Positions 17,705 to 60,277 of a stretch of DNA of 64,000 nucleotides are shown piece by piece. The notes under the pieces are model-generated. The model was not told where the DNA came from and made no database searches. It was given only the letters and a program-made list of their open reading frames with translations. This stretch comes from Laetmonice hystrix. Lineage: Eukaryota. Made by a program: the position numbers and the translations under genes. Positions within the stretch are counted from its first letter, which is position 1. Each line of letters starts with the position of its first letter. The stretch covers positions 27,654,001-27,718,000 of the forward strand of contig OZ249436.1 in NCBI GenBank assembly GCA_965235115.1, given 5' to 3'.

Positions 17705-19077
17705 TATAGATTACAGCTAGGGACAAAGGTTTACATACACCTATAGATTACAGCTGGGGACAAAGGTTTACATACACCTATAGATTAAAGCTGGGGACAA
17801 AGGTTTACATACACCTATAGATTACAGCTGGGGACAAAGGTTTACATACACCTATAGATTACAGCTGGGGACAAAGGTTTACATACACCTATAGATTACA
17901 GCTAGGGACAAAGGTTTACATACACCTATAGATTACAGCTGGGGGCAAAGGTTTACATACACCTATAGATTACTGCTGGGGACAAAGGTTTACATACACC
18001 TATAGATTACAGCTGGGGACAAAGGTTTACATACACCTATAGATTACAGCTGGGGACAAAGGTTTACATACACCTATAGATTACAGCTAGGGACAAAGGT
18101 TTACATACACCTATAGATTAAAGCTGGGGACAAAGGTTTACATACACCTATAGATTACAGCTGGGGACAAAGGTTTACATACACCTATAGATTACAGCTG
18201 GGGACAAAGGTTTACATACACCTATAGATTACAGCTAGGGACAAAGGTTTACATACACCTATAGATTACAGCTAGGGACAAAGGTTTACATACACCTATA
18301 GATTACAGCTAGGGACAAAGGTTTACATACACCAATAGATTACAGCTAGGGACAAAGGTTTACATACACCTATAGATTACAGCTGGGGACAAAGGTTTAC
18401 ATATACCAATAGATTACAGCTGGGGACAAAGGTTTACATACACCTATAGATTACAGCTAGGGACAAAGGTTTACATACACCTATAGATTACAGCTAGGGA
18501 CAAAGGTTTACATACACCAATAGATTACAGCTAGGGACAAAGGTTTACATACACCTATAGATTACAGCTGGGGACAAAGGTTTACATACACCTATAGATT
18601 ACAGCTGGGGACAAAGGTTTACATACACCAATAGATTACAGCTAGGGACAAAGGTTTACATACACCTATAGATTACAGCTGGGGACAAAGGTTTACATAC
18701 ACCTATAGATTACAGCTGGGGACGAAGGTTTACATACACCTATAGATTACAGCTGGGGACAAAGGTTTACATACACCTATAGATTACAGCTAGGGACAAA
18801 GGTTTACATACACCTATAGATTACAGCTAGGGACAAAGGTTTACATACACCTATAGATTACAGCTAGGGACAAAGGTTTACATACACCTATAGATTACAG
18901 CTGGGGACAAAGGTTTACATACACCTATAGATTACAGCTAGGGACAAAGGTTTACATACACCTATAGATTACAGCTGGGGACAAAGGTTTACATACACCT
19001 ATAGATTACAGCTGGGGACGAAGGTTTACATACACCTATAGATTACAGCTGGGGACAAAGGTTTACATACACCTAGA
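17705..19077. repeat. 37-bp minisatellite, ~37 copies
   Basis: Unit CTATAGATTACAGCT(G/A)GGGACAAAGGTTTACATACAC, highly homogeneous, with no spacers. Confidence 0.97.
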
Positions 19078-20312: not shown

Positions 20313-23300
20313 TTACACTTTACCTGACAAGCGTGAAGACCGCCTCAAATGTCCTGTTGCTCCTGCAAAGAAGAAGCAGCGTTGCAATAGACCTAAATAA
20401 GGGTGTACAATGTATAACATATTTCCACTTAAAACTCACTCCCTTGACCTATACATGACGTTTGTAATAATCTTCAATCACAAACGTAATTGGATCCAAG
20501 ATGGCGCAAGCCAATGTATAACTTACTGTAAAGGATGAAGATTCTCTACTGATAAACTGGAACATTTTATTTTTTTTATGAACATACATATTTATTATGT
20601 TAGATGTCAATCTAATTTTTCAGTTACCCCTTTACATGCCTTGAACATTTGTGAGAACTATATGGAAAGTTGCTGGATTAACATTTGCTATAAGTATTCT
20701 AGACCTTTGACACTGGGGATAATATACAGGCGGCCCTCTGGTTCCCTTGAAAACTGCCTAGAGGCACTTCATGAGATGCTTAATTCTATTCCATCGGGTA
20801 ATGATATTATGATGATTGGAGACTTTAACATTGATTTTGCTAAAAATAATAACAATTCTAGGAAACTTAAAGAATTAGCACGCGAGAGATCTCTGAAACA
20901 GTTGATTAAAACACCTACCAGAGGAACACATTATACAAGTACAACTATTGACCTAATATTCGTAAAGGCCGATCACATTGTCCAGAGTGGCACAATTCCC
21001 TGTGGATTAAGTGATCATAATATAATTTTTGTTATCAAAAAGAAAATACAACCTACACATACGAGTGCAACCTTTCAAGGACGAAGCTACAAACACTTGG
21101 ACATTCCTAACTTACAAGCACGTATATCAGCCTTGGACTGGTCACCTTTCTATGAATGCTGTGATCCTACACTTAGTTGGGATATTATGCTAGGTAATAT
21201 AATGTCCGTCACCGATCTGCTATGTCCCCTCAAAGAAATAAAGATAAAAAAGGTTAAACAACCGTGGATTAACAACCTTTTACTTGAACTAATGAATGAT
21301 AGAGATGCTGTTCTGAAGCGACATGAGCAGACAAAAGACTCGGCTGACTGGGACTTGTATAAAAGGCTGAGAAACGAGGCTAAGAGAGGAGTCCGTGAAG
21401 CTAAAGAAGAGTTCATAATTGACAATCTTGTGAAACACGAAGGTGACCACAAAAAGTTCTGGAAACAGATAAATGATCTATTTCCTCGCTCTGGTAAGAA
21501 CAATGCTACTTTCAGACTGATTGAGCCAAATGGCAATACTGAAGTTGATGAAAGTAAGACTGCTGATTATATCAACTCATTTTTTGTGAATATTGGTCCT
21601 AACCTTGCCCAGCACTTCAGAGAACCCTGGGATACGGATATGGTCAGGTCAAACCTAGAACTGCCAACTATGGTTACCACTGAAGAGGAGGTTAAGAAGC
21701 TAGTTAAAGAAATTAACATATACAAATCCTCTGCTATTAAGAACATTTCATCGAAAATTCTTAAACCTGCATTCCTAATCCTAATACCTCAACTCACACA
21801 CTTGTTCAATCTATGCCTTACACATGGATTATTTCCTGATAGCTGGAAGGTTGCTACAGTCATTCCACTACAAAAAGATGGTGATAAGTCGGATGTGGGA
21901 AACCTAAGGCCAATCTCGTTACTTCCTCTGCCAGGGAAGATGTTAGAAAGGGTAATCCATGCAAATTTAATGCTTTTTCTCACAGAAAATAACCTAATAT
22001 CTGAAAAGCAAGGTGGTTTTAGGCCTGGTTTTTCAACCACTAGAAAAATAGCGGACTTAACTGATGACATATACGAAGCTATGAATAATCAAGAAATTAC
22101 TGTGGCAGTCTTTATTGATTTTAAAAAAGCTTTTGATACGGTTGATCACGAAATTCTTCTCAGGAAACTAGACTTACTTGGTATTAGGAATATAAACCTT
22201 AACCTAATAACTAACTATCTATCCAACAGGAAACAACAGACCTTGGCAAATAATGTTATGTCAGATACTGCAAACATCACGTTTGGGGTCCCCCAAGGCT
22301 CTGTTCTCGGTCCGCTATTGTTTCTATTGTACGTGAATGATTTACCAGACTGTATTCAAAACGGACGTTCGCAATTATATGCTGATGACACAACTGTCTA
22401 CCAAAAACACAGTAATGTATATTGTGCGGTTCAGAGCCTTCAAGATGACCTTGACCGTTTAATGCATTGGTGCAACCTGAATAAATTAACGATCAATGTT
22501 AAAAAAACTAAAGCTATGATCTTCACTACTAAACAAAGAAAGAAAAGGCTTCCGCCAATCAATCTGACATTAGGCAATGAGCGACTCGCTATAGTAGACT
22601 CGTATAAGTACCTGGGACTTACTCTAGACAGCACACTTAATTTTGAAAACCATCTTAAAAATATGGTAAAAACCATAAGTCACAAACTATTTATGCTAAC
22701 TAGGCTACGTCGACTGTTAACTCAGGCTGCTGCCGAAAGAGTCTATAAAACAATGATTTTACCATACTTTGACTATGCAGACATCTTCTATGAGGCATGT
22801 TCACAAAACAAACTCGATAAGTTACAAAGGATCCAAAATCGGTCTCTTAGATGCATAGCTGGTGTCAACCAAAAACATCTTTCCACTGATGAATTGCATG
22901 AAAAGTTAAATCTCTGTAAGCTAATTACTAGAAGAAAACAGCATCTTGCGAACTTTATGTTTAAAAGATCATCGGACCCCCACTATATAGACAATAGAAA
23001 CCTAATAACAAGAGAACATAGGAAAAAGCTCATGGTAGTGACTAAACCTAATTTAGAAAAGTTCAAAGACTCCTTGGTGTATAAAGGCTCTAAACTTTGG
23101 AATAGCCTAAGTATGGAACACCAAGTATGTGCATCATATAAACTTTTTAAATCCAAAACAAAGAACTGTATTATAGATTGAAGGAATGTGTATGTTTGTT
23201 CCCTATATTAGCCCTATGAAGTTGACATGTAATTTATGTGTATCATGGCATTTCCCCCCCTGTACAGATGCTATAATCACCCACACATCTCATTATCATC

Positions 23301-23434
23301 TCACTCTTCTATCATACCTATGTAATAGATAGTATCGAGGATAAGGTATTCGGGAAACGCGTGACTATTGTAGGAGGTTTACCAGGAAACAGGCTTATAG
23401 CCTTGTGTATATCTTCTTCAATAAAGATCATCTT

Positions 23435-23467
<33 letters not shown>

Positions 23468-24981
23468 CATCAAGTGGAAGGCCTTTTAGCAATTTTAACT
23501 TTTTGCGAACTCAAAGATGAGACTTTCCAGGATTGTCCATCATAACTTTGCATTTTCAGGCATCCCATACATGTACTTATACTGTATGTAATACGCACCT
23601 CACTGTCATCTGTAGGCATGAACACAAATATACATTGACTTACATAATCTTAAATTGACATCAAATTGCTTGCTTCTCCAAAGTGTCACAAAACATAAGC
23701 TAAGTTACCTACAAAAATGCGAAAGTTCCATAAAGTAGAAGTTCTGTACATGTAAAATAGTATTTCTTTATCTACATATCTTCAAATCTAAGGGGAGGGG
23801 GAAATCTCTTACTTGTTTTGGTAAGACTGTCATCAGAGGAATTTATTTGGCACTTTGCAGATTGTCGATTGGTTGTCTGTCGCTTGGTTCCTTTCTTCGA
23901 CACAGTGCTCTTTTTAGTGAGAACTTTTGGAGATGATACCACAGTTTTAGCATTATGTTTTGGATACAACGTTTTCTTTGGGGCAGAATTTCTTGGCCCT
24001 TTCTCTTCATTTGCTGATTCTTCTGACTCCTGAGCAGCAAAACACAGACAATTTGTGGGAAATGCGACTGGTAAAGGTTAATCCTGATCAAATCTATAGA
24101 GGTTATGTGGTGACGTCATTTGGAGGAAAATAGCATGGGCTTCTGTTTACAGTTATTTTAAATCGATTCTCTACAGCTCTTTACCTTCTCTTTCTCCTTG
24201 GGAGCACTTCTTTTCCTTTCAACTCTCCCTCTGGTTTTATGATCTGGAATGATTCATAATTAAGAAGTTAGAACCATGTAGAAATTACGTTCTCATGGAA
24301 ATCTGATCTAAAATACATTGTAGGTGTGTATATCATTATATGGCACATACCTAATTTTACTAATACTAATTTTTGCACCAATGAATGGTGGCGTGTTTAA
24401 TACCTTTTGTTCATTTAATTCATTTGTTCAACTGTGTATGGAAAGGTGGACCTTACGTCACATCCTTTTGTTGAATTGTTACCATGAACGATGTTGTCAA
24501 AAACTGTGACGTACCTACTTGAAAGACCTACGTCATAATTCGTCGTCATATTTAACAAGAGAACATAGGAAAAAGCTCATGGTAGTGACTAAACCTAATT
24601 TAGAAAAGTTCAAAGACTCCTTGGTGTATAAAGGCTCTAAACTTTGGAATAGCCTAAGTATGGAACACCAAGTATGTGCATCATATAAACTTTTTAAATC
24701 CAAAACAAAGAACTGTATTATAGATTGAAGGAATGTGTATGTTTGTTCCCTATATTAGCCCTATGAAGTTGACATGTAATTTATGTGTATCATGGCATTT
24801 CCCCCCCTGTACAGATGCTATAATCACCCACACATCTCATTATCATCTCACTCTTCTATCATACCTATGTAATAGATAGTATCGAGGATAAGGTATTCGG
24901 GAAACGCGTGACTATTGTAGGAGGTTTACCAGGAAACAGGCTTATAGCCTTGTGTATATCTTCTTCAATAAAGATCATCTT

Positions 24982-25014
<33 letters not shown>

Positions 25015-28000
25015 CATCAAGTGGAAGGCCTTTTAGCAATTTTAACTTTTTGCGAACTCAAAGATGAGACTTTCCAGGATTGTCCATCATAACTTTGCAT
25101 TTTCAGGCATCCCATACATGTACTTATACTGTATGTAATACGCACCTCACTGTCATCTGTAGGCATGAACACAAATATACATTGACTTACATAATCTTAA
25201 ATTGACATCAAATTGCTTGCTTCTCCAAAGTGTCACAAAACATAAGCTAAGTTACCTACAAAAATGCGAAAGTTCCATAAAGTAGAAGTTCTGTACATGT
25301 AAAATAGTATTTCTTTATCTACATATCTTCAAATCTAAGGGGAGGGGGAAATCTCTTACTTGTTTTGGTAAGACTGTCATCAGAGGAATTTATTTGGCAC
25401 TTTGCAGATTGTCGATTGGTTGTCTGTCGCTTGGTTCCTTTCTTCGACACAGTGCTCTTTTTAGTGAGAACTTTTGGAGATGATACCACAGTTTTAGCAT
25501 TATGTTTTGGATACAACGTTTTCTTTGGGGCAGAATTTCTTGGCCCTTTCTCTTCATTTGCTGATTCTTCTGACTCCTGAGCAGCAAAACACAGACAATT
25601 TGTGGGAAATGCGACTGGTAAAGGTTAATCCTGATCAAATCTATAGAGGTTATGTGGTGACGTCATTTGGAGGAAAATAGCATGGGCTTCTGTTTACAGT
25701 TATTTTAAATCGATTCTCTACAGCTCTTTACCTTCTCTTTCTCCTTGGGAGCACTTCTTTTCCTTTCAACTCTCCCTCTGGTTTTATGATCTGGAATGAT
25801 TCATAATTAAGAAGTTAGAACCATGTAGAAATTACGTTCTCATGGAAATCTGATCTAAAATACATTGTAGGTGTGTATATCATTATATGGCACATACCTA
25901 ATTTTACTAATACTAATTTTTGCACCAATGAATGGTGGCGTGTTTAATACCTTTTGTTCATTTAATTCATTTGTTCAACTGTGTATGGAAAGGTGGACCT
26001 TACGTCACATCCTTTTGTTGAATTGTTACCATGAACGATGTTGTCAAAAACTGTGACGTACCTACTTGAAAGACCTACGTCATAATTCGTCGTCATATTT
26101 ATGTTACATAACGTAATCGCTTCCCTACCCAGCCTCACATAAAATAGTCCCCAATACAGCGCATTTTTACTAAGTTAGAAACAATTAATCCAACCCAAAT
26201 AAATAATTAACTCTCTTTATATTACCATTAATTAATTTAGGAAAGAGCGCAGAGATTCACATCAGCACTCGTGCTTCCCACTCGTGCTGATATTACTCCG
26301 CACATGCCACCTCGTCTGATACACAATCCTGTATCACACACTCGGTCGTTCCCGTGTCAGGGATGTGCCCCAAAAAAATGAGTGTTGGTCAGTGAGAAAT
26401 TAATATGTACCGGTACACACATTTTATCAGATGAGAGGCCTGATAAAAATTCCTGCCGGGCAGCACTTGAACCTTTTTAGTTTTGTCGGTGCCGGGCAGG
26501 CCCGCCCAGCGCCGCCCAGCGTGGGCACATCCCTGCTGTGTATTTCCGCACATCTGACCACAGTTCTATGATCTGACAGTACATGTATAAGCTAACAGTG
26601 CGAGCCCAAAGTGTCTCAAACTACTAGTTACCTACTACAATTAAAAGGCACCAATTTTCGAACATCAAACTGGGGAGTGGTCTTCAATCTTGAGTCACAC
26701 AACCAAGAAATATGGTAACAAGTTAATGTATTTACTTGACAATACCTTTAGGTTTCAATGGTCCTGCCTGTCCAATAAACCACATTGTTCTACCGTTGTG
26801 ATCCACCATGTTGTTCATACCATCTTTATAGTAACACTGAAGCCAGTCCAGGAATGATGCAAAGCCTTCCTTGTCATCGCGTGGGTCATACACGTGTCCT
26901 CTTCCACCATCTGTCAACATGTAAAATCAGCTGACACGCCGGGTAGGCATACTTTGTCAGGTTGAAGACGTATACATGTACAGTATAATTACAGTATAAC
27001 TCTTACGTAGACGGCTATATATCCTGCTATAAATTAAGTTCTAAAATAAAAATAAATTGTTGGTGGGAAATACAAACTCTAAAACCCCCTGCTGGATAGC
27101 AAACTGGATGTACAAGTTTTACTCAATCAGTGCCAGGACTTCCATTGGGAGATCATGACAGAGTTGTAGGATGCCAGTGTTTAAACTGGATGTACAAGTT
27201 TTACTCAATCAGTGCCAGGACTTCCATTGGGAGATCATGACAGAGTTGTAGGATGCCAGTGTTTAAACTGGATGTACAAGTTTTACTCAATCAGTGCCAG
27301 GACTTCCATTGGGAGATCATGACAGAGTTCTAGGATGCCAGTGTTTTTAAACAGGATGTACAAGTTTTACTTAATCAGTGCCAGGACTTCCATTGGGAGA
27401 TCATGACAGAGTTGTAGGATGCCAGTGTTTAGGCAAAAAAGAAATCCCGGTTTCTGGTCCGCGCGCACGTCACTTCAAATGCCGCGCATCAGTGCTTTTT
27501 TTTTTCTTCCCCTCACCTTGGATGACTGTGAATTGCGCTGCCACCTAGTGGTAAGGCCAAAAAAAAAAATAGATTCGTTTCTTGTCCCCGCGCGCGTCAC
27601 CTAAAAACCCCCGCGTCAAGTCTTTTTTTTTCAAATCCGACTGCTTCATATGGTGGGCAGTGTAGCGCTGGGACAGAACGTTGCAACGGTTCTTTGGCGT
27701 TGGCGCCTTTCTGTTAGTCTTATTGCTTTTTATGCGAGTTTTACACATTCTAAAACATTGAACATCATTGCATTAGTCTTTTCTTCAAGATTTATGTACC
27801 CAACAGCAATTGCATTCGAAGAATCGGCCGTTGTCTAGTTGCATCCAAAAAAAAAAAAGAAAGATGAAAAAAAAAGAAGCCGCGTCACCGCACCATTTTT
27901 TTTATATGAAAGGACAAGAAACGAAACTTTTTTTTTTTTGGCCTAAGGCTTGAAACTAACCATTGTTGTAATGGATATTTCAGTAACATTGCAACGGAAG

Positions 28001-31000
28001 TGTGTTGTATGCAAAGCGATGACAACAAAGGTCATGGTCCTTGTTTATGAGTTCATTTTACATGATATCGTATGAGGCCCGCTCTCACCCAAAAAAAAAT
28101 CTTTAACAAAAAAAACAAAACGCGTCACCGCACCACTTTTGAAATGTTCTTCGGACCAGAAACCGGGAATTTCTTTTTTTGGCCTTAAACTTGATGTACA
28201 AGTTTTACTCAATCAGTGCCAGGACCTCCATTGGGAGATCATGACAGAGTTGTAGGAGGTCAGGGCTTGAATAGGATATACAGACTGTACTCAATCAGAC
28301 TTCCATTTGGAAGTCATGAGTAGCATGTCTGAGTTTGAACAGCATGCAGGTTTTTCCTACTCAGTACCAGGACTTCCATTGGGAGGTCATGAGTTGTAGC
28401 ATGTCTGGGTTTGAACAGCATGCAGGTTTTTCCTACTCAGTACCAGGACTTCCATTGGGAGGTCATGAGTTTTAGCATGTCTGGGTTTGAACAGCATGCA
28501 GGTTTTTCATACTCAGTACCAGGACTTCCCTTGCCATTGGGAGGTCATGAGTTGTAGCATGTCTGAGTTTGAACAGCATGCAGGTTTTTCCTACTCAGTA
28601 CCAGGACTTCCATTGGAAGGTCATGAGTTGTAGCATGTCTGGGTTCGAACAGCATGCAGGTTTTTCCTACTCAGTACCAGGACTTCCATTGGGAGGTTAT
28701 GAGTTGTAGGATGTCTGGGTTTGAACAGCATGCAGGTTTTCCCTACTCAGTACCAGGACTTCCCTTGCCATTGGGAGGTCATGAGTTGTAGCATGTCTGG
28801 GTTTGAACAGCATGCAGGTTTTTCCTAGTCAGTACCAGGACTTCCATTGGGAGGTCATGAGTTGAAGCATGTCTGGGTTTGAACAGCATGCAGGTTTTCC
28901 CTACTCAGTACCAGGACTTCCCTTGCCATTGGGAGGTCATGAGTTGTAGCATGTCTGGGTTTGAACAGCATGCAGGTTTTTCCTACTCAGTACCAGGACT
29001 TCCATTGCCATTGGGAGGTCATGAGTTGTAGCATGTCTGAGTTTGAACAGCATGCAGATTTTTCCTACTCAGTACCAGGACTTCCATTGGGAGGTCATGA
29101 GTTGTAGCATGTCTGGGTTTGAACAGCATGCAGGTTTTTCCTAGTCAGTACCAGGACTTCCATTGGGAGGTCATGAGTTGTAGCATGTCTGGGTTTGAAC
29201 AGCATGCAGGTTTTCCCTACTCAGTACCAGGACTTCCCTTGCCATTGGGAGGTCATGAGTTGTAGCATGTCTGGGTTTGAACAGCATGCAGGTTTTTCCT
29301 ACTCAGTACCAGGACTTCCATTGCCATTGGGAGGTTATGAGTTGTAGCATGTCTGAGTTTGAACAGCATGCAGATTTTTCCTACTCAGTACCAGGACTTC
29401 CATTGGGAGGTCATGAGTTGTAGCATGTCTGGGTTTGATCAGCATGCAGGTTTGACTTTGACTCACTCAGTGCCAGGACTTCCATTGGGACATCATGACA
29501 GAGTTGTAGGATGTTTGGATTTGAACAGCATGCAGGTTTTTCCTACTCAGTACCAGGACTTCCCTTGCCATTGGGAGGTCATGAGTTGTAGCATGTCTGA
29601 GTTTGAACAGCATGCAGGTTTTTCCTACTCAGTACCAGGACTTCCATTGGGAGGTCATAAGTTGTAGCATGTCTGGGTTTGAACAGCATGCAGGTTTTTC
29701 CTACTCAGTACCAGGACTTCCATTGGGAGGTCATGAGTTGTAGCATGTCTGGGTTTGAACAGCATGCAGGTTTTTCCTTCTCAGTACCAGGACTTCCATT
29801 GGGAGGTCATGAGTTGTAGCATGTCTGAGTTTGAACAGCATGCAGGTTTTTCCTACTCAGTACCAGGACTTCCATTGGGAGGTCATGAGTTGTAGCATGT
29901 CTGGGTTTGAACAACATGCAGGTTTTTCCTACTCAGTACTAGGACTTCCATTGGGAGGTCATGAGTTGTAGCATGTCTGGGTTTGAACAGCATGCAGGTT
30001 TTTCCTACTCAGTACCAGGACTTCCCTTGGCATGACAGAGTTGTAGGATGTCAGAGTTTGAACAGGATGTACAGTTCTTACTCACTCAGTGCCAGGACTT
30101 CCATTGGGAGATTATGACAGAGTTGTAGGATGTCAGTGTTTGAACAGGATGTACAGTTCTTACTCACTCAGTGCCAGGACCTCCAATGGGAGATCATGAC
30201 AGGGTTGTAGGATGCCAGTGTTTGAAGACGATGTACAGTTCTTACTCACTCAGTGCCAGGACCTCCAATGGGAGATCATGACAGGGTTGTAGGATGCCAG
30301 TGTTTGAAGAGGATGTACAGTTCTTACTCACTCAGTGCCAGGACTTCCATTGGGAGATCATGACAGAGTTGTATGATGTCAGTGTTTGAAGAGGATGTAC
30401 AGTTCTTACTCACTCAGTGCCAGGACTTCCATTGGGAGATCATGACAGAGTTGTAGGATGTCAGTGTTTGAAGAGGATGTACAGTTCTTACTCACTCAGT
30501 GCCAGGACTTCCATTGGGAGATCATGACAAAGTTGTAAGATGTCGGGTTTCTCTGACTTCACGCCTGCCTTCTGTGCAGCATGCACTGGTTGCAGCACTG
30601 ACTGGGCACTCACAAACGGGGGTATGTTCAACCTACAACATATTGAGAAAAGTCCTTTAATAAATTATTCATTTGGGGTCTGCTGCATCCTAATATCGAA
30701 ATGGCCTTTTTTAGAAAAAAAAAAGTGACAACTGTTTGTTGTTATTTTCAAATCTTTGACTTGATACTCACAAAGTGTCAGGCCTTAGTTCGAGAACATC
30801 TGATCAAGGAACAATAACCTTGAACATACCTGTAAAGTATTTCAGCTCGCAGATAGTTGCCAACTCCATTGAAGTACTTCTGGTCAAGCAAAACCTCACA
30901 TATTGGTTTCTTAAATACCACCCGTTCTACATCATTGAGTATGTTTTCCCTGTAACAGATTGTGATATCCAGGATGATATAAAATCAAGCTTTGACGATT

Positions 31001-32203
31001 TGATTGTTGATGTTACAACAGAAAGTTTGACTTTAGGCCACTTAAAATTAATAAATTGTTTTACATGGCCGGCCGCCTCGATTTTTTTTTATATTTTATA
31101 TTTTTCAAAAAGTCCGTTTTTTTCATCCCCAAAACCGTCTCCCACAGTTCTGTCAGGGTGTTACAGTTGAAGGGACCCTCAAGGTATAGAAGGGCTGTAC
31201 AAAATGTTGAGATATTGAGAAATTAAAAGTATTTTTCCAGTGATCTCTGGTGATCTCTGCTGTCCTTCTTGTCGAGGCAAAATATAAAATATAAAATATA
31301 AAATGCCCTACTCACCAACATTTCAGAAGTTGGAGTCATGTAAAACAATTTATTAATTTTAAGTGGCCTTATTTGGCATTGAAAAATTTATTTATAACTG
31401 CACTGGACCTGTCTGCCCTTCCTGCAGTGCTGACCAACATGCTCTGAATTATGAGACAATCTAACTGGTTTCAGACAATAGGTGCACAATTTTTGAATGA
31501 CACTGCCAGTTTTATAAGCATTGTATTCATGTTACTGGCAATGTTTACTTTCAAAGTTGCCACTTCCAAATAAGAACTGTGTCTTCATCATTTTTGATGA
31601 GGTTCAATGATATGTATTTTGAGTATTACCATAGACCTAGTCCTAGAGTAGATCTACTCTAGGTCTATGGTATTACCAACTTGGACGGCAATAAGTACCG
31701 TACCTGAAGAGATCATATTCGAGTATAACACAAGGTCCTCGGTTTTTACCCCATTCGTCTGTCAACTCCCACCGACCAAAACGGCGGTAGTCGTTAAAAC
31801 TCAAACAATAATCGTCTGTATCCGTGAAGAAATTCAGATGGCAGTGTTTGTCCATGTCGTCCTTGTGCACAAACTTGAATTTTCCCGACATGCCAAAACG
31901 AAAGAGAATTTCAATTTTCTTCCCCTGATATTCCCCATTTTTAGACTTTTGTTTTTGAATGTCATTGGCTTTCATTTTCACCCCGGAAGGATCTGTCGCC
32001 TCCGTGGGATGCACCGCTGTCAGGGTCAGCTTGACTTCCTTGCCGCGGGTTGTAGCGGAGATTTTATAGGCGGGCTCCTCCCATGGGATGTCGGGGTTCT
32101 TTGTGGAGACGGCGGATTTCAGAACTTTACCGGTGAAGATCCTATTCTCACAAACTCTGTTAATGAAAAGGCCTGCAACGTGAAGTTCGGGTCCTTCTGG
32201 CAT
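20313..32203 (-). CDS. NEIL1: Endonuclease VIII-like 1 DNA glycosylase (Fpg/Nei family)
   Basis: Starts MPEGPELH (catalytic Pro2/Glu3); RGKE, FRFGMSG, RRFGRW, RGPCV, LLDQKYFNGVGNYLRAEILYR (H2TH) and DHNGRTMWF match NEIL1. Exons (minus): 32203-31704, 30949-30830, 30632-30496, 26910-26746, 25790-25732, 25576-25360, [duplicated 24243-24185, 24029-23813], 20362-20313; all GT-AG and phase-consistent (415 aa without, 507 aa with the duplicate pair). The last exon is inferred; an unspliced alternative reads to a stop at 25319. Confidence 0.92.
20578..23181 (+). CDS. LINE ORF2 (partial APE endonuclease plus reverse transcriptase), CR1/L2 group
   Basis: 867-aa ORF with GIIYRRP, IGDFNID, TTIDLIF and SDHN (APE), then LRPISLL, KQGGFRPG, FIDFKKAFDTVDH, GVPQGSVLGP and YADDT (RT); the APE N-terminus is missing. 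Confidence 0.92.
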   Translation: MNIHIYYVRCQSNFSVTPLHALNICENYMESCWINICYKYSRPLTLGIIYRRPSGSLENCLEALHEMLNSIPSGNDIMMIGDFNIDFAKNNNNSRKLKELARERSLKQLIKTPTRGTHYTSTTIDLIFVKADHIVQSGTIPCGLSDHNIIFVIKKKIQPTHTSATFQGRSYKHLDIPNLQARISALDWSPFYECCDPTLSWDIMLGNIMSVTDLLCPLKEIKIKKVKQPWINNLLLELMNDRDAVLKRHEQTKDSADWDLYKRLRNEAKRGVREAKEEFIIDNLVKHEGDHKKFWKQINDLFPRSGKNNATFRLIEPNGNTEVDESKTADYINSFFVNIGPNLAQHFREPWDTDMVRSNLELPTMVTTEEEVKKLVKEINIYKSSAIKNISSKILKPAFLILIPQLTHLFNLCLTHGLFPDSWKVATVIPLQKDGDKSDVGNLRPISLLPLPGKMLERVIHANLMLFLTENNLISEKQGGFRPGFSTTRKIADLTDDIYEAMNNQEITVAVFIDFKKAFDTVDHEILLRKLDLLGIRNINLNLITNYLSNRKQQTLANNVMSDTANITFGVPQGSVLGPLLFLLYVNDLPDCIQNGRSQLYADDTTVYQKHSNVYCAVQSLQDDLDRLMHWCNLNKLTINVKKTKAMIFTTKQRKKRLPPINLTLGNERLAIVDSYKYLGLTLDSTLNFENHLKNMVKTISHKLFMLTRLRRLLTQAAAERVYKTMILPYFDYADIFYEACSQNKLDKLQRIQNRSLRCIAGVNQKHLSTDELHEKLNLCKLITRRKQHLANFMFKRSSDPHYIDNRNLITREHRKKLMVVTKPNLEKFKDSLVYKGSKLWNSLSMEHQVCASYKLFKSKTKNCIID
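20600..23467 (+). mobile_element. 5'-truncated non-LTR retrotransposon with poly(A) tail, antisense within the last NEIL1 intron
   Basis: Uninterrupted ORF2, ~255-nt 3' UTR with AATAAA near 23419, and A29 at 23439-23467. The 5' boundary is approximate and no TSD was found. Confidence 0.88.
23006..26101. repeat. 1547-bp direct tandem duplication (23006-24552 / 24553-26099)
   Basis: Identical ORF translations at a 1547-nt offset; both copies carry an A29 tail; junction at 24553 with TA microhomology. Confidence 0.95.
24553..25014 (+). mobile_element. Duplicated 3' fragment of the LINE (end of ORF2, 3' UTR, A29)
   Basis: TREHRKKL...KNCIID is identical to the C-terminus of the 20578 ORF; part of the tandem duplication. 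Confidence 0.9.
27432..28184. mobile_element. Harbinger-like MITE (TTA TSD) inserted into the satellite
   Basis: TIR GGC(C)AAAAAAGAAAT(T)CCCGGTTTCTGGTCCG; TTA duplicated, splitting the satellite motif GTGT-TTA-AAC. Confidence 0.8.
27555..27943. mobile_element. Related Harbinger-like MITE (TAA TSD) nested in the previous element
   Basis: TIR GGCCAAAAAAAAAAA..TTCGTTTCTTGTCC / GGACAAGAAACGAA..TTTTTTTTTTTGGCC, with TAA on both flanks. Confidence 0.8.
31036..31368. mobile_element. Harbinger-like MITE (TTA TSD) in NEIL1 intron 1
   Basis: Perfect 32-bp TIR GGCCACTTAAAATTAATAAATTGTTTTACATG; TTA on both flanks. Confidence 0.85.
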
Positions 32204-32723
32204 GATGATCGGTAAAAACTATAAGGCCAAAGAGTCGGTGAAGACGCGGATGCTATGCCTATGGCTATACCGTGCTCTCCACGTGTTTTGTTGTTGTGTA
32301 AGCATGGTACAGCAATAGAATTGGGTCAAAAGGACCCCTATATCATTTCGAAAGGAGCATAGCGCCGACAGTGTTTATTACTGTGACAGTTATAGACTCT
32401 ATGTATTGACAAATTCCATAGTGTTTATCGTTGAAAAGAATGGACAATAATGTCCTCATCGGTTGCCGACGCCAATGTTAGTCCTACCAGGCACTCGGCC
32501 TATATCTTTTTGTTGCATGGCGGGGCCAGGGAAGGTCAGGGGTCAGGTGCACGCTCACATTCGCGCCCATTTGCTGAAATGAACGCTCATAGATCCTGCA
32601 CGGGACTCTGGGCAAACCGCAGGGGGTAACGAGGACACCGGGGCGAACTATAATTATAGTTTCACCGCAGTACATGGAAGACATGGCTTCCCGCATGACA
32701 CTAGTCAAACCGGCGGCGGTTAA

Positions 32724-34795: not shown

Positions 34796-37750
34796 TTATT
34801 GATGAAGGTAGCGCATGCTTGTAGGGTTCGGTTTGTCGGCCCACTTGTAGTCTATTTTAGCTGGGTGGTCCTTGTGGTACCTGTCCAATGCGTTCTTAAA
34901 ACCGTTGACTGTGGATTTTGATACTATTTCATCAGGTAGTTCGTTCCACCAATTTGCTACTCTTTGGGTGAAAAAGTTTTGTCTGATATTTGTCCTATTT
35001 AATGACTTGTTTAACTTGTAGTTGTGTCCCCTTAGTCCAGGAGTTGTTGTGCTCAGGTTGTTGGTCAGTAAGTCTGTGTCCATAAATCCATGTAACATTT
35101 TGTAAACATTTATTAAATCGCCACGTATCCTTCTGTATGTCAAGGTTGGAATGTTCAACTCTTTAAGTCTATTTTCATAGCTCAGATCCTTAAGTGCTGG
35201 TATCATTTTGGTTGCCCGCCTTTGGATGTTTTCCACTTCCTCAATTAATTTCCATAAACTTGGAGTCCATACAGGTGCGGCATACTCTAGTATGGGTCTG
35301 ATGATGGATTTATATAGTAATTTAAATGTGTGTTTGTCCAGGTAATCGAAGGATCTCCAGATCATGCCGGTTATGCTATTCGCTTTTTTGGTAATGAGGT
35401 GGATATGGTTTTCAAAACTGAGGTTCTTGTCGATTTGTACTCCGAGGTCCCTTTCTACGTCTGATAATGTGAGTTCAATAAGTGAGTCATCTGACCTCAT
35501 TTTGTATATAAATTCGGGTTGACCTTTATATATTCTGAGCACTACGCATTTGTTTGGGTGAAAACGCAGCTGCCATTTCTTCTCCCATTCTTCCAGATTC
35601 CTGATGTCTTGCTGTATTCTTTGGCATTGGTCTATGGTTTTGGCGCTTCCATACAATTTTGAGTCGTCTGCGAATAGTTTAATATTTGATGCTGCTATTT
35701 GAGGCATATCGTTGATGAAGATTGCGAATAGAACGGGGCCCATCACACTGCCCTGTGGGATTCCACTTTTCATGGCCTTCCATTGAGATGTTGCCCCATC
35801 CACTAGTGTTCTTTGTTTTCGCTTTGTAAGGAAGGTCTTTAGCCACATGAGGAGTTCGCCATTTATACCGTAGCTTCTTAATTTAGATATTAGTCTCATA
35901 TGTGGCACTGAGTCAAAAGCCTTCATGAAGTCGAGCATTATGACGTCGACCGGCATATTGTTGTCTATGGATTGGGTTACAAAATCCAGGTATTCTAGTA
36001 GTTGGGTTACGGTAGATCGCCCCGACATAAATCCATGTTGGTGCTTGGAGTATAGGTTATTACTTATCATGTGGTGATTGACACTGGCTCTGATTATTTT
36101 TTCTAAAATTTTGCAACATACTGATGTGAGACTTACTGGCCGATAGTTTTGCGCCAATCTCCTCGACCCTTTCTTGTGGATGGGTGTTATGTTGGCCACT
36201 CTCCAGTCCTCCGGTAGTTCGCCAGATTTCAAAGATTCATTGAAGATATGGGTTAATGGTGCTGCCAGCACTGAAGCGGTTTCCTTAAGGACCCTGGGGT
36301 GGAGGTCGTCCGGTCCCGCACTCTTGTATTGATTTAGTTCCTTTAATAATTTTTCTACCTCCTCCTTTGTCACCGGCACTCTGTTTAGTGGCTCATGGAA
36401 AGGTATTGTGGGTAGTTTCGGTATGACCTCAGTGTCTTCAGTGGTGAAGGTTGATGCAAAAAAGTCATTCATCAGCTCTGCTTTACCTACTCCATCTGTT
36501 ATTGTTTCTTCCTTTTCATTTTCCAGGTCTGCTATGCCTTGTCTTGTGTTTAGTTTATTGTTCACATATTTCCAGAAGCTCTTGGGGTCTACCTTTGCCT
36601 GTCTGGCGACTTGTTTTTCCAGATTTTTTTTTGCTTTTCTGGTCATCCCCTTGAGTTGATTTCTTATTTTGGCATATTGTAAGTAGTCTTTACCTAGTTT
36701 TGTATCCAGGTATCTTTTCCATAATTTTTCTTTCCTTCTTATGTGGCGTCTAGTTGCCCCCGTCATCCAAGCCGGCTTACGCCTGAGGTCGGGGCCACGG
36801 CTGACCGGTATATTCCTTCGCACTGACTCCTGTACCCTATTTTTGAAGATGTTCCAACATTCTGCCGCTGGTTTCCCTTGTAGAAGACTAATCCAGTCAA
36901 TCCCAAGCTCCTTGATTATTGCGTCATAGTTCCCTTTATGGTATTGGAAAGACTCCCTCCTTGGACCCTGCACTGCAGTATTGATGTTGAAATCGAAGGT
37001 TATACATATATGGTCGCTTTTTCCTAATGGCTGAAGTGGCTTGATGTTTCCTACCCTCTGGTCTTCGTTGGTTAGTACGAGGTCTAGGGTGTGTGGTTCC
37101 TGGTTACACCTGTACCTAGTTGGGAAGCTTATCATCTGCTGAAGGAAGGCATCATTTGTGGCTTCTATAAAGTCTGCCTCAGCCCTTGTGTTTCCTACAG
37201 GCGTGTCTTGACTTAACCAGTCTATTCCTGGATAATTAAAGTCCCCTAGTACCAATTGGAATGCCGATTTCTCCTTCTGTAGGTTACTGATCATTTTGTT
37301 TATGTTACCTGTGTTATCAGCTTGTGAGTTTGGGCTCCTATACATGCATATTACGTTTAGGGGCACATTTGAGATTGTTTTTAACTGGATGCCTAGTGCC
37401 TCTTTAGTGTCCTTGTGGTTTGACAATTTTAATTCACTGGCCTTTAGATTCTGGTTTACTAGTATAGCCACCCCTCTTGTGTCGTTTTCCTTGATATTAG
37501 TGAACAGGTCATATCCTGGTATTGCTATTTCATTGGCTTGTAGCTCAAATCTGGAGTTTTTTGGCTTTACTTCAGTTAGTGCAATAATGTCTGGTTGATG
37601 CTCCTCCACCATCACTGCTAATTCCCCTCTTTTATTTAGGACACCGTCTGCGTTTGTGTATAATATCGTTAATTTGTCCTTTTTTCTCTGACCTGTGCTT
37701 GCAGAGTTTGCTACTCTCTGCGTTTCATCCTCACTATCCTCAAGTTCCAT
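34796..37750 (-). CDS. CR1 LINE ORF2: APE endonuclease plus reverse transcriptase (984 aa)
   Basis: YTNADG, DIIALTE, MYRSP, LGDFNYP, LDLVLT and KSDH (APE); YRPVSLTS, QHGFMSGRS, LDFMKAFDSVPH, GIPQGSVMGP and FADDSK (RT); CR1-type C-terminus RRIRGDLI, LRGHNYKL, FFTQRVANWWNELP. Confidence 0.96.
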   Translation of the reverse strand: MELEDSEDETQRVANSASTGQRKKDKLTILYTNADGVLNKRGELAVMVEEHQPDIIALTEVKPKNSRFELQANEIAIPGYDLFTNIKENDTRGVAILVNQNLKASELKLSNHKDTKEALGIQLKTISNVPLNVICMYRSPNSQADNTGNINKMISNLQKEKSAFQLVLGDFNYPGIDWLSQDTPVGNTRAEADFIEATNDAFLQQMISFPTRYRCNQEPHTLDLVLTNEDQRVGNIKPLQPLGKSDHICITFDFNINTAVQGPRRESFQYHKGNYDAIIKELGIDWISLLQGKPAAECWNIFKNRVQESVRRNIPVSRGPDLRRKPAWMTGATRRHIRRKEKLWKRYLDTKLGKDYLQYAKIRNQLKGMTRKAKKNLEKQVARQAKVDPKSFWKYVNNKLNTRQGIADLENEKEETITDGVGKAELMNDFFASTFTTEDTEVIPKLPTIPFHEPLNRVPVTKEEVEKLLKELNQYKSAGPDDLHPRVLKETASVLAAPLTHIFNESLKSGELPEDWRVANITPIHKKGSRRLAQNYRPVSLTSVCCKILEKIIRASVNHHMISNNLYSKHQHGFMSGRSTVTQLLEYLDFVTQSIDNNMPVDVIMLDFMKAFDSVPHMRLISKLRSYGINGELLMWLKTFLTKRKQRTLVDGATSQWKAMKSGIPQGSVMGPVLFAIFINDMPQIAASNIKLFADDSKLYGSAKTIDQCQRIQQDIRNLEEWEKKWQLRFHPNKCVVLRIYKGQPEFIYKMRSDDSLIELTLSDVERDLGVQIDKNLSFENHIHLITKKANSITGMIWRSFDYLDKHTFKLLYKSIIRPILEYAAPVWTPSLWKLIEEVENIQRRATKMIPALKDLSYENRLKELNIPTLTYRRIRGDLINVYKMLHGFMDTDLLTNNLSTTTPGLRGHNYKLNKSLNRTNIRQNFFTQRVANWWNELPDEIVSKSTVNGFKNALDRYHKDHPAKIDYKWADKPNPTSMRYLHQ

Positions 37751-38955
37751 GGGGGGCCTCTCACCTTGTGTACATACAGGCCTCCCTCGGTTTCGTTTTT
37801 TGCTTTAGCCTCGTCCACTAGTTTTTTGACCTCAATCCGTTCTTCCCTAGTGAGGTCATGGCTGACACTGATATTCTTAAATATTCTATCAGCATCTTGG
37901 AGTTTGTGAAGCCTTTGCATGATTTTAGTCTTGTCATCGGTGCTTTCCATAGTAACTTTAGTTGGTCTGTCCCTGCCTTCTTGCCTTTTGCCCAGTCGGG
38001 CTATGTTTGTAATTTTCAAGTTAGTTAGTTCAAGCACTTCATTAGTTAGGCGTTGTATCAGATCATGGTCATATTTTCTCCTGTCTTCCACTCTTTCTTC
38101 CTCACTCTCCTTTAGTCTGTAGATTATAATATTTTGCTCTCTGACTTCTTTATCCTTTACTTCAATCTGATTTCTTTTCATTAGTTGGTCCACTTTATCT
38201 ACTACGACATTTGTCAACTGTTTGGTCTGGTCTGAGATATTCCTGGCTGCTATTTGGGCCCAGCTAGTTGGGGGGGTGTCTGCCTCTTGTTCTGGGTCTA
38301 TTATTATCGCGGGTTTATCGAGTTCTTTCATGATCTCTTTTGCCGTCTGCTTCGCTGCCACGGCACAAGATTCTTTGATGCTATCCTTACCTTCCTGGAT
38401 TATATCCCCCAGCTGTCTAGCTACGCCTTCTAGCATCTTATCCATGCGCTTCTCAAGGGCTCCTACGTGTGAGATTTTACCCCCTGTCTTAGATGTACAT
38501 ACTGCCTCCATCGCGATGGGGTCACATACTGTGCAAAACCAGTGTAGGTTGGGCCACATGTCAAGCGCTTCCATCATCTCCAACGGTACATTCTGGCATG
38601 AGCCACAACACCATTTAGTACACCTCTCACACTGGATCACACCGGTAGTGTCTTTCCCACACCTCTCGCACTCATACAGTTCCTCACCTGGATCACCGGG
38701 GTCTCTTGAATCATCACCTCTTACCTCTTCTTCGATCAGGGACTGGCTGGCAGACTTGGTGGCCGTGGATTTCTTCCCCCTCCTACCTTTCTTACCAGCC
38801 GCCAGTGGCGGCAGATCCGTTGCGGCCTTTGCTCTATCCGTGACCTTGACCTTCCTCGTGGGCTCACTTGCGGTAGTTGGTAGCTCACTTCTGTCACCAC
38901 TGCCAATTCCCAAAAGCTTGTCTCGCAGGGGAGAGAGCTTCGTTTTGAGTGACAT
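37711..38955 (-). CDS. CR1 LINE ORF1: PHD finger, coiled coil and RRM/CTD-like region (414 aa)
   Basis: CERC..CERCTKWCCGSC..WFCTVC PHD-like finger; NIIIYRLKE, RLGKR..RP and SHDLTREER motifs typical of LINE ORF1; overlaps the ORF2 start by 40 nt. Confidence 0.9.
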   Translation of the reverse strand: MSLKTKLSPLRDKLLGIGSGDRSELPTTASEPTRKVKVTDRAKAATDLPPLAAGKKGRRGKKSTATKSASQSLIEEEVRGDDSRDPGDPGEELYECERCGKDTTGVIQCERCTKWCCGSCQNVPLEMMEALDMWPNLHWFCTVCDPIAMEAVCTSKTGGKISHVGALEKRMDKMLEGVARQLGDIIQEGKDSIKESCAVAAKQTAKEIMKELDKPAIIIDPEQEADTPPTSWAQIAARNISDQTKQLTNVVVDKVDQLMKRNQIEVKDKEVREQNIIIYRLKESEEERVEDRRKYDHDLIQRLTNEVLELTNLKITNIARLGKRQEGRDRPTKVTMESTDDKTKIMQRLHKLQDADRIFKNISVSHDLTREERIEVKKLVDEAKAKNETEGGLYVHKVRGPPWNLRIVRMKRRE

Positions 38956-58410: not shown

Positions 58411-59302
58411 CCTTGTACCAACCTCTGGGCATCTTCGAACTGTTCCCTTGTACCAACATCTGGGCATCTTCGAACTGTTCCCTTGTACCAACCTCTTGGC
58501 AATATCTTCGAACTGTTCCCTTGTACCAACATCTGGGCATCTTCGAACTGTTCCCTTGTACCAACCTCTTGGCAATATCTTCGAACTGTTCCCTTGTACC
58601 AACCTCTTGGCAATATCTTCGAACTGTTCCCTTGTACCAACCTCTTGGCAATATCTTCGAACTGTTCCCTTGTACCAACCTCTTGGCAATATCTTCGAAC
58701 TGTTCCCTTGTACCAACCTCTTGGCAATATCTTCGAACTGTTCCCTTGTACCAACATCTGGGCATCTTCGAACTGTTCCCTTGTACCAACCTCTTGGCAA
58801 TATCTTCGAACTGTTCCCTTGTACCAACCTCTTGGCAATATCTTCGAACTGTTCCCTTGTACCAACCTCTTGGCAATATCTTCGAACTGTTCCCTTGTAC
58901 CAACCTCTTGGCAATATCTTCGAACTGTTCCCTTGTACCAACCTCTTGGTAATATCTTCGAACTGTTCCCTTGTACCAACCTCTTGGCAATATCTTCGAA
59001 CTGTTCCCTTGTACCAACCTCTTGGCAATATCTTCGAACTGTTCCCTTGTACCAACCTCTTGGCAATATCTTCGAACTGTTCCCTTGTACCAACCTCTTG
59101 GCAATATCTTCGAACTGTTCCCTTGTACCAACCTCTTGGCAATATCTTCGAACTGTTCCCTTGTACCAACCTCTTGGCAATATCTTCGAACTGTTCCCTT
59201 GTACCAACCTCTTGGCAATATCTTCGAACTGTTCCCTTGTACTAACCTCTGGGCATCTTCGAACTGTTCCCTTGTACTAACCTCTTGGCAATATCTTCGA
59301 AC
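58411..59302. repeat. 38-bp (35-bp variant) minisatellite, ~24 copies
   Basis: Unit CCTTGTACCAACCTCTTGGCAATATCTTCGAACTGTTC; variant CCTTGTACCAACATCTGGGCATCTTCGAACTGTTC. Confidence 0.97.
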
Positions 59303-60277
59303 GGTTTCCACAACTTTCTGCTTTGTGTTTTTCCATTTGAAAAAAACTCGATTCGTTGCCGCCCTAACGGCAATTTCATCTTCGGACTCTATGTGACCCT
59401 TCATTTCCTCAGTGGACTCGGGTCATTTGTCAGGACGGCCTTCAAATAGTGGCCAACCAATAATTCATTGCATGCAACCCAACGCCCCACCTAAGCCCGG
59501 ACGATAGGTTATCTTCTATAGCGTTGACCAGTAGACCGCATTCAGGTCAGAATAAATTACCCTGTAAAGTGCACCAGCATTATGAAATATTTATACTGAC
59601 CATTCCAAGTCCTGCATGTGTACCTGCGATGAAAAGGTATTCAGAATTATTCGGTTTTTATATGCTACTGTAGCTTTAATGTTGTGAGTGGGTTTTGCCG
59701 TAGACGTATACACACGTATGGAAATAGTGCCCTGTCGGTCGTGCTGCAGGCAATCGACTTAATCCACCGAAACAGCTCCCAGAGTCCGACTGATCCGGGG
59801 CGGTAGAGGGCAATCGTTTTGAAAGGCTCGTCAAATTACTGCCCAGCTTATGCCATGCTTCTCTGCTGCCAGCCAACCTCGCTAGATGGGCTTAACCGTA
59901 TCTATGACACCATAACTTTCTACTGCTGATAGAGATCCATTTCAACGACGGGAATCGGAATCTTGGAATCAATATAGGCCCCTTAATATAGTGTTGTTTT
60001 CTTTTCTTTTTACCGTGGTTTAACCGAGGTCAAATGAATAGGAGGGGCATTGGTGATTACATGTATTTGGTTTCGTATAAGAAGGATCGTAAATGTTACC
60101 GAAGACATCTGTTAGGGGCGATAAGATTGTCCCCTCCATAAGCCTATGTTCGTACTTTGGCTGGCTCGTAAATTTACCTATTTTGGAGTTAATTTGCGAA
60201 GTCACATACGAATTACATTCAGACCGGCGCCTCGCCTCTATGGCGCTGGTTTAAAACACTAGCGACGTCAACCCCCT

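Follow-up and report, generated by a model that had tools for sequence, protein, structure and literature searches.

In amphioxus, mirages, arrays in which an exon–intron boundary is copied in tandem into the adjoining intron, have been described in Adh3, troponin C, the globins BflGb6 and BflGb9 and PGBD5. In the accessible parts of these papers they are reported to leave splicing undisturbed (PMC3087553, PMC3902484), and the ends of the BflGb6 mirage escape homogenisation (PMC3087553). The 37-bp VNTR of human F7 IVS7 carries five to nine identical donors. According to the available extracts of that study, only the most upstream donor is used, the pseudo-sites being unused even at low efficiency unless made perfect (PMC1557585). 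Donor scanning was demonstrated in mammalian cells. For the 25-bp VNTR of human ABCA7 intron 18, the available part of the report describes use of the second donor, which adds one unit and leads to a frameshift and a premature stop, with truncation or NMD proposed as the outcome (PMC5954066). Finally, the 31-bp VNTR of human CBS, c.1444_1467+7(16_21), comprises by this notation 24 coding and 7 intron bases in 16–21 copies (PMC2630376, as far as its accessible text goes).

The array examined here lies at the start of intron 3 of a gene of Laetmonice hystrix, within a window (the whole stretch of DNA analysed) of 64 kb. The host gene is NEIL1, on the minus strand. Exons 1, 3 and 4 match chains of human NEIL1 with E values of 6.6e-36, 1.5e-4 and 1.9e-11, and the product carries the Pfam domains Fapy_DNA_glyco and Neil1-DNA_bind, both above their cut-offs. 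An open frame runs through the first four exons listed below, and the introns between them are all GT..AG. Exon 1 is 58% identical to Lingula and 46–48% to Branchiostoma; a tree of homologs places this NEIL1 outside the chordate rows, with no finer placement, and among 22 homologs the protein looks ordinary. Splicing was followed in contigs of four sequencing runs from one sample and one study, none on record as RNA, compared over 30400–32400; one of them, run X4, is treated as an RNA run, since introns 1 and 2 are missing from its contigs at GT..AG borders. The layout of the gene is as follows:

31704..32203, minus strand: coding part of NEIL1 exon 1 (MPEGPE start, Fpg/Nei N-terminal domain), from frame, human match and Pfam; intron 1 is skipped in run X4
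30830..30949, minus strand: NEIL1 exon 2, 120 nt, from frame; joint 30630/30828 in run X4
30496..30632, minus strand: NEIL1 exon 3, 137 nt, with donor TGA/GTGAGT after 30496 in phase 1, from frame, homology and an X4 contig
30544–30496, minus strand: exonic portion of unit 0 (the final 49 nt of exon 3), from unit alignment
30488..30490, minus strand: TAA in frame, occupying intron positions +6 to +8, a premature stop for transcripts reading past the first donor, from translation of 34 donor choices
26746..26910, minus strand: NEIL1 exon 4, 165 nt, with acceptor TTGACAG and the Neil1 DNA-binding motif, from frame, human match and Pfam
25732..25790, minus strand: predicted NEIL1 exon 5, 59 nt, from frame only
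25319..25576, minus strand: predicted last coding exon, ending with TAG and giving a 412-aa product, from frame only

Between 30544 and 27101, 34 units follow each other in tandem, namely the true exon end (unit 0) and 33 copies. The unit is built from the exon's closing 49 nt (DILQLCHDLPMEVLAL + A), followed by the donor with 33 nt of intronic sequence, in good agreement with the composition first proposed (about 50 nt of exon, donor, about 32 nt of intron); its boundary is set by frame, homology and the spliced contig. The array is thus a boundary-spanning minisatellite of the known class "mirage", which the original prediction had not recognised, as its unit spans the exon–intron boundary of its host and the head-to-tail copies adjoin the authentic one. 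The original prediction that the repeat arose from the exon end and donor of NEIL1 itself is supported: the motif encoded by the exon part of the unit is also conserved in the human protein and the 22 homologs, which dates the exon before the repeat, and the window holds no other copy. Neither BLAST nor a search with a 28-mer from the unit found A- or B-unit copies outside the array in the 64-kb window; allowing up to 3 mismatches, the 28-mer matches 25 times, in each case within the array, where 100 shuffles predict 0.00, so that chance does not explain it. A metagenome scan with this 28-mer gave 0 matches, not an informative outcome for a gene of animal origin. Over the first units, contig depth adds up to 8–19 times the single-copy level in all three unspliced runs, although such depth is no copy number; the same measure over a MITE in intron 1 reaches 239–662 times that level. 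The low depth over the first units is a weak hint that the array is specific to the NEIL1 locus.

The units fall into three blocks, whose distal part is split by a nested insertion:

30053..30544, minus strand: block A, six 82-bp units (unit 0 and 5 copies), all with TGA/GTGAGT, 91–98% identical to unit 0 (unit alignment)
28328..30052, minus strand: block B, 22 units, mostly of 76 or 82 bp, 70–77% identical to unit 0 (unit alignment)
28262..28327, minus strand: 66-bp unit u28, degenerate and located where B meets C (unit alignment)
28188..28261, minus strand: first C-type unit u29, donor now TT, interrupted by the MITE at the unit's TAA (unit alignment)
27432..28184, no strand assigned: outer MITE-like insertion, 753 bp including the inner one, with GGCC(A)n ends, inverted repeats of about 27 bp and TAA duplicated at 28187–28185 and 27431–27429 (repeat analysis)
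27555..27943, no strand assigned: inner related MITE, 389 bp, with inverted repeats of about 33 bp and TTA duplicated at 27946–27944 and 27554–27552 (repeat analysis)
27101..27423, minus strand: block C, 4 units (84, 82, 82 and 75 bp) with an A-like exon part and donor GT changed to TT (TRF, unit alignment)

This layout retains the tandem units of the first description, which overlooked the nested MITE in the distal part. What had been presented as a single 3.4-kb satellite is resolved by TRF into two blocks (28298–30550 and 27101–27431), and 756 of the 3444 bp (22%) belong to the nested inverted-repeat insertion. Tourist-like MITEs of the PIF/Harbinger group are short, non-coding elements with terminal inverted repeats and a 3-bp TAA or TTA target duplication. 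The insertion fits this definition (outer element of 753 bp with TAA, inner element of 389 bp with TTA) and, judging by its target duplications, we take it to be PIF/Harbinger (Tourist)-like. The ends of the inner element are about 75% like those of the outer one, and BLAST found no further copies like the insertion in the 64-kb window.

The block counts first given were about right, with 6 proximal 82-bp GTGAGT units, 22 middle ones and 5 distal ones with TT for GT, to which one degenerate unit must be added. The middle units, announced as 76 or 81 bp, are mostly of 76 or 82 bp and include one of proximal type (u13). Block B carries 18 weak GT donors, 3 units without GT and this A-like unit (donor 29467), and it contains an internal duplication of 4 units, 316 bp in length (u14–17 and u18–21). 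Divergence was thought to be graded away from the exon; it follows instead the order A-B-C, and identity to the true exon end does not track copy order (Spearman rho -0.21, p 0.23). Compared with the middle B block, it is the distal C copies that lie nearer to the exon: the exon-like part agrees with the exon at 45–46 of 50 positions in distal copies, 43–47 of 50 in proximal ones and 40–41 of 50 (or of 56) in middle ones. Mean unit identity is 0.94 within A, 0.93 within B and 0.90 within C, for 0.84 between A and C, 0.74 between A and B and 0.70 between B and C. Together with the 316-bp internal duplication, these identities reveal concerted evolution inside the cluster, from which the ends are excluded.

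Conversion of the coding exon by the array, also envisaged at the outset, is not borne out: at unit positions 7 and 15 the exon has bases found in none of the 11 copies free of indels, and these two exon-private bases argue against recent conversion of exon 3. Positions 16–49 are identical in unit 0 and in units 1, 30, 32 and 33, except position 2 in the last three, and no direction can be read there.

As far as the accessible descriptions allow comparison, the NEIL1 array resembles the amphioxus mirages in that an exon–intron boundary is copied in tandem into the adjoining intron, the splice signal is kept in many but not all units, concerted-evolution blocks leave out the ends, and the unit size lies within their range (10–72 bp in Adh3, 150–160 bp in the globins). 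It differs from them by its non-amphioxus host, by its 34 units (3–6 in BflGb6) and by the nested MITE that splits it; the amphioxus arrays are length-unstable, whereas this one is known from one assembly and short contigs of one sample. In F7 IVS7 too, judging from the same extracts, the first unit crosses the exon end and its donor and pseudo-donors follow; the unit there has 37 bp, with 5–9 identical donors, in contrast to 34 units of 76–82 bp with mostly degraded donors in NEIL1, and use of the first donor was established by mutagenesis in F7, where NEIL1 offers one agreeing contig. The ABCA7 array, from what is available of its report, likewise begins at a donor, and the mechanism proposed in the original prediction is already in print for it; its unit begins at GT and holds no coding sequence, and its leak was detected, whereas that of NEIL1 is only putative. 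The CBS unit, by its notation, spans a donor like the NEIL1 unit. A partial literature search, without supplements, retrieved no report of CBS VNTR splicing, of mirages in lophotrochozoans or of this NEIL1 intron; Lievers 2001, to go by its title, reportedly deals with a splicing effect of the CBS VNTR.

A 257-letter contig of run X4 (record 24) consists of exon 2 joined to exon 3 (30496–30630 and 30828–30949) without spare letters. It ends exactly at 30496, the base that directly precedes the first donor, although this is one contig and exon 4 lies outside the compared 30400–32400. Among the matches listed for the runs against this region, none has a loose end at 30496. No X4 record covers 30400–30495 (the bin depth of 53.1 being record 24 alone), and missing cover proves nothing; rare forms are lost from contigs, and NMD in any case depletes its targets, so that a leak could escape such data. 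A unit variant seen in run X2 (30457) and missing from the assembly hints at a second allele.

The array was credited with dozens of decoy donors, a number that the copies do not sustain: TGA/GTGAGT is kept in 6 of 33, a weaker GT is found in 18 (14 GTAGGA, 3 GTAGGG and 1 GTATGA) and GT is absent from the position in 9. The authentic donor is itself modest, with 5 of 9 consensus letters for 7, 8 and 5 in the three other confirmed donors of the gene, and the 6 copies equal it; this score simply tallies the letters that agree with the donor consensus and does not come from a trained model. A test for selection against decoy donors would lack power, because very few original changes account for the 27 weakened copies. 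The announced in-frame TAA just past the first donor is indeed found (L-S-E-stop, codon 255). When all 33 later donor positions are translated, it is retained in every case, at least 74 nt upstream of the new junction, the nearest later donor giving 74 nt. NMD is expected when a stop lies more than 50–55 nt ahead of a downstream junction, a distance that all later donors provide.

These data strongly favour a locus-born minisatellite of the mirage or F7-IVS7 type that spans the boundary and is tolerated without serving a function itself, and the array is most likely a by-product of minisatellite turnover. Its history could be viewed as follows: an 82-bp stretch across the exon 3 donor was duplicated in tandem, as is visible in the units themselves, and slippage or unequal exchange would then have expanded the array, a derived 76-bp variant filling the middle while the ends kept the older form. 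The resulting A-B-C pattern is observed; the order of events is our inference. Two related MITEs entered the distal block, one within the other, as the sequence shows. The spliceosome would keep the most upstream donor, defining the normal 137-nt exon, as suggested by the accessible F7 and amphioxus data and consistent with the single X4 contig; mRNA and protein would therefore be unchanged. Rare transcripts from later donors would carry the TAA and be cleared by NMD, which would make the array cheap to carry and not a regulator.

An unselected leak, in which some transcripts, a few percent, are spliced from the second GTGAGT donor or from later ones and go to NMD, so that array alleles slightly shift NEIL1 output without adaptive role, as in ABCA7, has a small chance of being correct. 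The 6 copies share the 9-mer of the true donor, units 1 and 2 match its last 34 exon-side bases, and any later junction lies at least 74 nt past the stop; ABCA7 is a precedent, as far as its accessible report goes (PMC5954066), and 9537 human tandem repeats are catalogued as linked to splicing variation. The silence of F7 pseudo-sites short of perfection, in the available text (PMC1557585), speaks against such a leak, as does the continuity of the X4 contig to 30496. Decoy donors selected to tune NEIL1 through regulated unproductive splicing and NMD, as originally predicted, are far less probable still. NEIL1 dosage could matter and the stop/junction geometry would work, but the donor is weakened or lost in 27 of 33 copies, two MITEs sit inside the array, the TAA belongs to an ordinary intron start, and the titles and abstract openings of the literature retrieved contain no hint of such a mechanism for NEIL1. 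Regulation of NEIL1 by NMD via the array is unlikely; it would be possible in principle but finds no support in the present data. Hardly credible is an assembly artefact, or a dispersed repeat resembling the exon by chance: long arrays are hard to assemble, and a nearby 1549-bp duplication, 100% identical, could be an assembly error, but the differences between units are structured (among the 34, just 2 groups have identical members), B-type junction letters turn up as loose ends in all three unspliced runs and the unit encodes a conserved NEIL1 motif.

Taken alone, the NEIL1 minisatellite adds a further clean case to a known kind of oddity, the class being already in print. Its value is that of a data point: first-donor selection can be tested on identical donors spaced 82 nt apart in an animal that is not a chordate, and the A-B-C blocks, together with their nested MITE, document the turnover of an array of this kind. 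The case would gain weight if the level of this DNA glycosylase depended on allele length, of which there is no sign here. A length-dependent dial set by the proximal intact donors is a speculative and improbable extension: longer A blocks would send more NEIL1 pre-mRNA to NMD, selection would favour the expansion of variants that already carry a crippled donor (27 of 33 here), and mirages would be filtered by their splicing cost. If such filtering took place, the genome would be a natural test, at many loci, of 5'-to-3' donor scanning outside mammals.

Elsewhere in the window, two further arrays were considered as possible mirages. The stretch before a 38-bp array (59270–59422) matches no Pfam family and has only low-recognition atlas hits, and the other, a 37-bp array, has no gene assigned to it. 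TRF finds other long tandem arrays in the 64 kb, and tandem expansion is therefore common here.

NEIL1 lies on the minus strand, where four exons share one open frame and are separated by GT..AG introns:

32203-31704 (-), exon 1, in frame; match to the human NEIL1 chain and Pfam Fpg/Nei
30949-30830 (-), exon 2, in frame
30632-30496 (-), exon 3, in frame; match to the human NEIL1 chain
26910-26746 (-), exon 4, in frame; match to the human NEIL1 chain and Pfam Neil1 DNA-binding

Two further exons, predicted from the frame only, complete a 412-aa protein. Among the best 120 of 430 matches to exon 1, the best named relatives are lophotrochozoan (Lingula 58%, Patella and Liolophura 54%, Lineus 53%, Owenia 51%) and Branchiostoma shows 46–48%. 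In a 23-row tree, the window row falls outside the chordate rows, without firm placement.

Intron 3 opens with a real tandem array (34 units including the true exon end, unit 0, from 30544 to 27101). The basic unit combines the final 49 nt of exon 3 with the donor and 33 nt of intron. All 25 matches to a 28-mer taken from this unit fall inside the array (0 expected by chance), and BLAST of one block A unit and one block B unit across the 64-kb window found no match beyond it. The exon part of the unit encodes a motif common to human NEIL1 and 22 aligned homologs, indicating that the exon is older and that the repeat was copied from it. The original prediction thus traced the origin correctly, from NEIL1's own exon end and donor, and mis-described details of an array whose class is already known.

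The units fall into the following groups, in order away from exon 3:

Block A, 6 units, 91–98% identity to unit 0
Block B, 22 units, 70–77% identity to unit 0
One degenerate unit, between blocks B and C
Block C, 5 units, 77–88% identity to unit 0 over the whole unit; exon part 45–46 of 50

Divergence is therefore not graded away from the exon, as had been proposed, but forms a sandwich: identity does not correlate significantly with copy order (rho -0.21, p 0.23) and the unit tree groups A and C apart from B. One A-like unit persists within block B, which also contains a 316-bp duplication of four units. The first C unit is separated from the second by a 753-bp element that has inverted ends and a TAA duplication; nested inside this element is a related one of 389 bp (duplicated TTA). 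The 3.4-kb satellite is thus a tandem array, but 22% of the span first assigned to it consists of these two elements. The predicted dozens of decoy donors are not confirmed: the authentic TGA|GTGAGT is kept in 6/33 copies and a weaker GT in 18/33, but 9/33 have no GT.

As predicted, intron positions +6 to +8 form an in-frame TAA, which any later donor would retain at least 74 nt ahead of the junction. A stop codon well before a downstream junction usually marks a transcript as an NMD target; transcripts from later donors should therefore be such targets. Contigs from four sequencing runs of one sample, none of them recorded as RNA, were compared over 30400-32400 (exon 4 lies outside); such contigs omit rare forms and show neither ends nor levels. 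One run, X4, behaves as RNA, since introns 1 and 2 are missing from its contigs. The 257 letters of X4 record 24 correspond precisely to exons 2 and 3 joined and end at 30496, immediately ahead of the first donor; this fits use of that donor without proving it. The authentic donor (30495-30486) is itself a tandem site, GTGA|GTAAGA, in which another GT lies four bases further along and has nearly the same score by a count of consensus letters; use of this second site would shift the frame.

In the three unspliced runs, summed contig depth is 8–19x the single-copy level over the first units versus 239–662x over the intron-1 MITE, which speaks weakly against the unit being a dispersed family. Contigs of all three break at 30508, and run X2 has, at 30457, a variant form of the unit whose depth is roughly half that of single-copy sequence. 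Each of these signs hints at another allele with units missing from the assembly.

Boundary-spanning minisatellites of amphioxus, to which the NEIL1 array is alike in that the unit spans an exon-intron boundary, were named 'mirages' and reportedly leave splicing undisturbed (PMC3087553, PMC3902484). Intron 7 of human F7 has five to nine identical donors, of which the most upstream alone is reported to be used, by a scanning-type mechanism (PMC1557585). The CBS VNTR, judged by its notation, spans a donor (PMC2630376), and human repeats with links to splicing have been catalogued (PMC10078293).

Taken as a whole, the array is most probably a tolerated product of minisatellite turnover. A single duplication of the exon-3 boundary would have started it; it would then have expanded, been homogenised block by block and received a MITE insertion, while splicing would go on from the first donor. 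The unit anatomy, the origin, the blocks, the insertion and the position of the stop are established, whereas the sequence of events, exclusive use of the first donor and neutrality are inferred. A small leak of splicing to later donors, without selection, appears unlikely, although six copies keep the authentic donor. That the array is a selected regulator tuning NEIL1 through NMD, as originally proposed, is very improbable, even if the idea has a precedent in the ABCA7 intron-18 VNTR, where some transcripts are reported to use the next donor and acquire a premature stop (PMC5954066). Conversion of the coding exon by the array was also proposed; at unit positions 7 and 15 the exon differs from all 11 indel-free copies, so no recent overwrite is visible there, and at least one amino acid would change with 10 of these 11.

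Other features of the gene were observed. Human NEIL1 is edited from Lys to Arg at position 242; the codon aligned with that residue, the third full one of exon 4 (26902-26900), is AGA and specifies Arg at the DNA level, and several homologs have Lys there. In one X4 contig, a loose end at the exon-2 acceptor (30949) matches the minus strand from 41336 upward and is followed by a GTGAGT donor; the pattern suggests an alternative exon some 10 kb upstream, whose use would skip exon 1 with the catalytic N-terminus. Every frame of this putative exon is interrupted by stops within the 198 nt examined. The highly covered intron-1 MITE (31033-31369) has perfect 33-bp inverted repeats starting GGCC; all three unspliced runs show a joint across it, therefore an empty allele probably exists. 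Contigs of the same runs skip a 47-bp near-palindromic stretch of intron 1 (31623-31670), a probable polymorphic insertion. A perfect 1549-bp tandem duplication (23006-24554 and 24553-26101, period 1547), which includes both predicted exons, 5 and 6, together with the stop codon, is either very recent or an assembly artefact.

Elsewhere in the window, a 38-bp x 24 array (58411-59306, -), preceded by a stop-free stretch and with a donor-like GAG|GTTGGT in its unit, is possibly another mirage, a candidate without an assigned gene. Further arrays occur at 17705-19075 (37-bp x 37) and 2465-2701 (43-bp x 5.5), with 96–97% matches. NEIL1 is flanked by two long LINE-like endonuclease and reverse-transcriptase frames (20539-23178, +; 34799-37804, -), and an NCU-G1/GLMP gene lies farther away (11054-13217, +).
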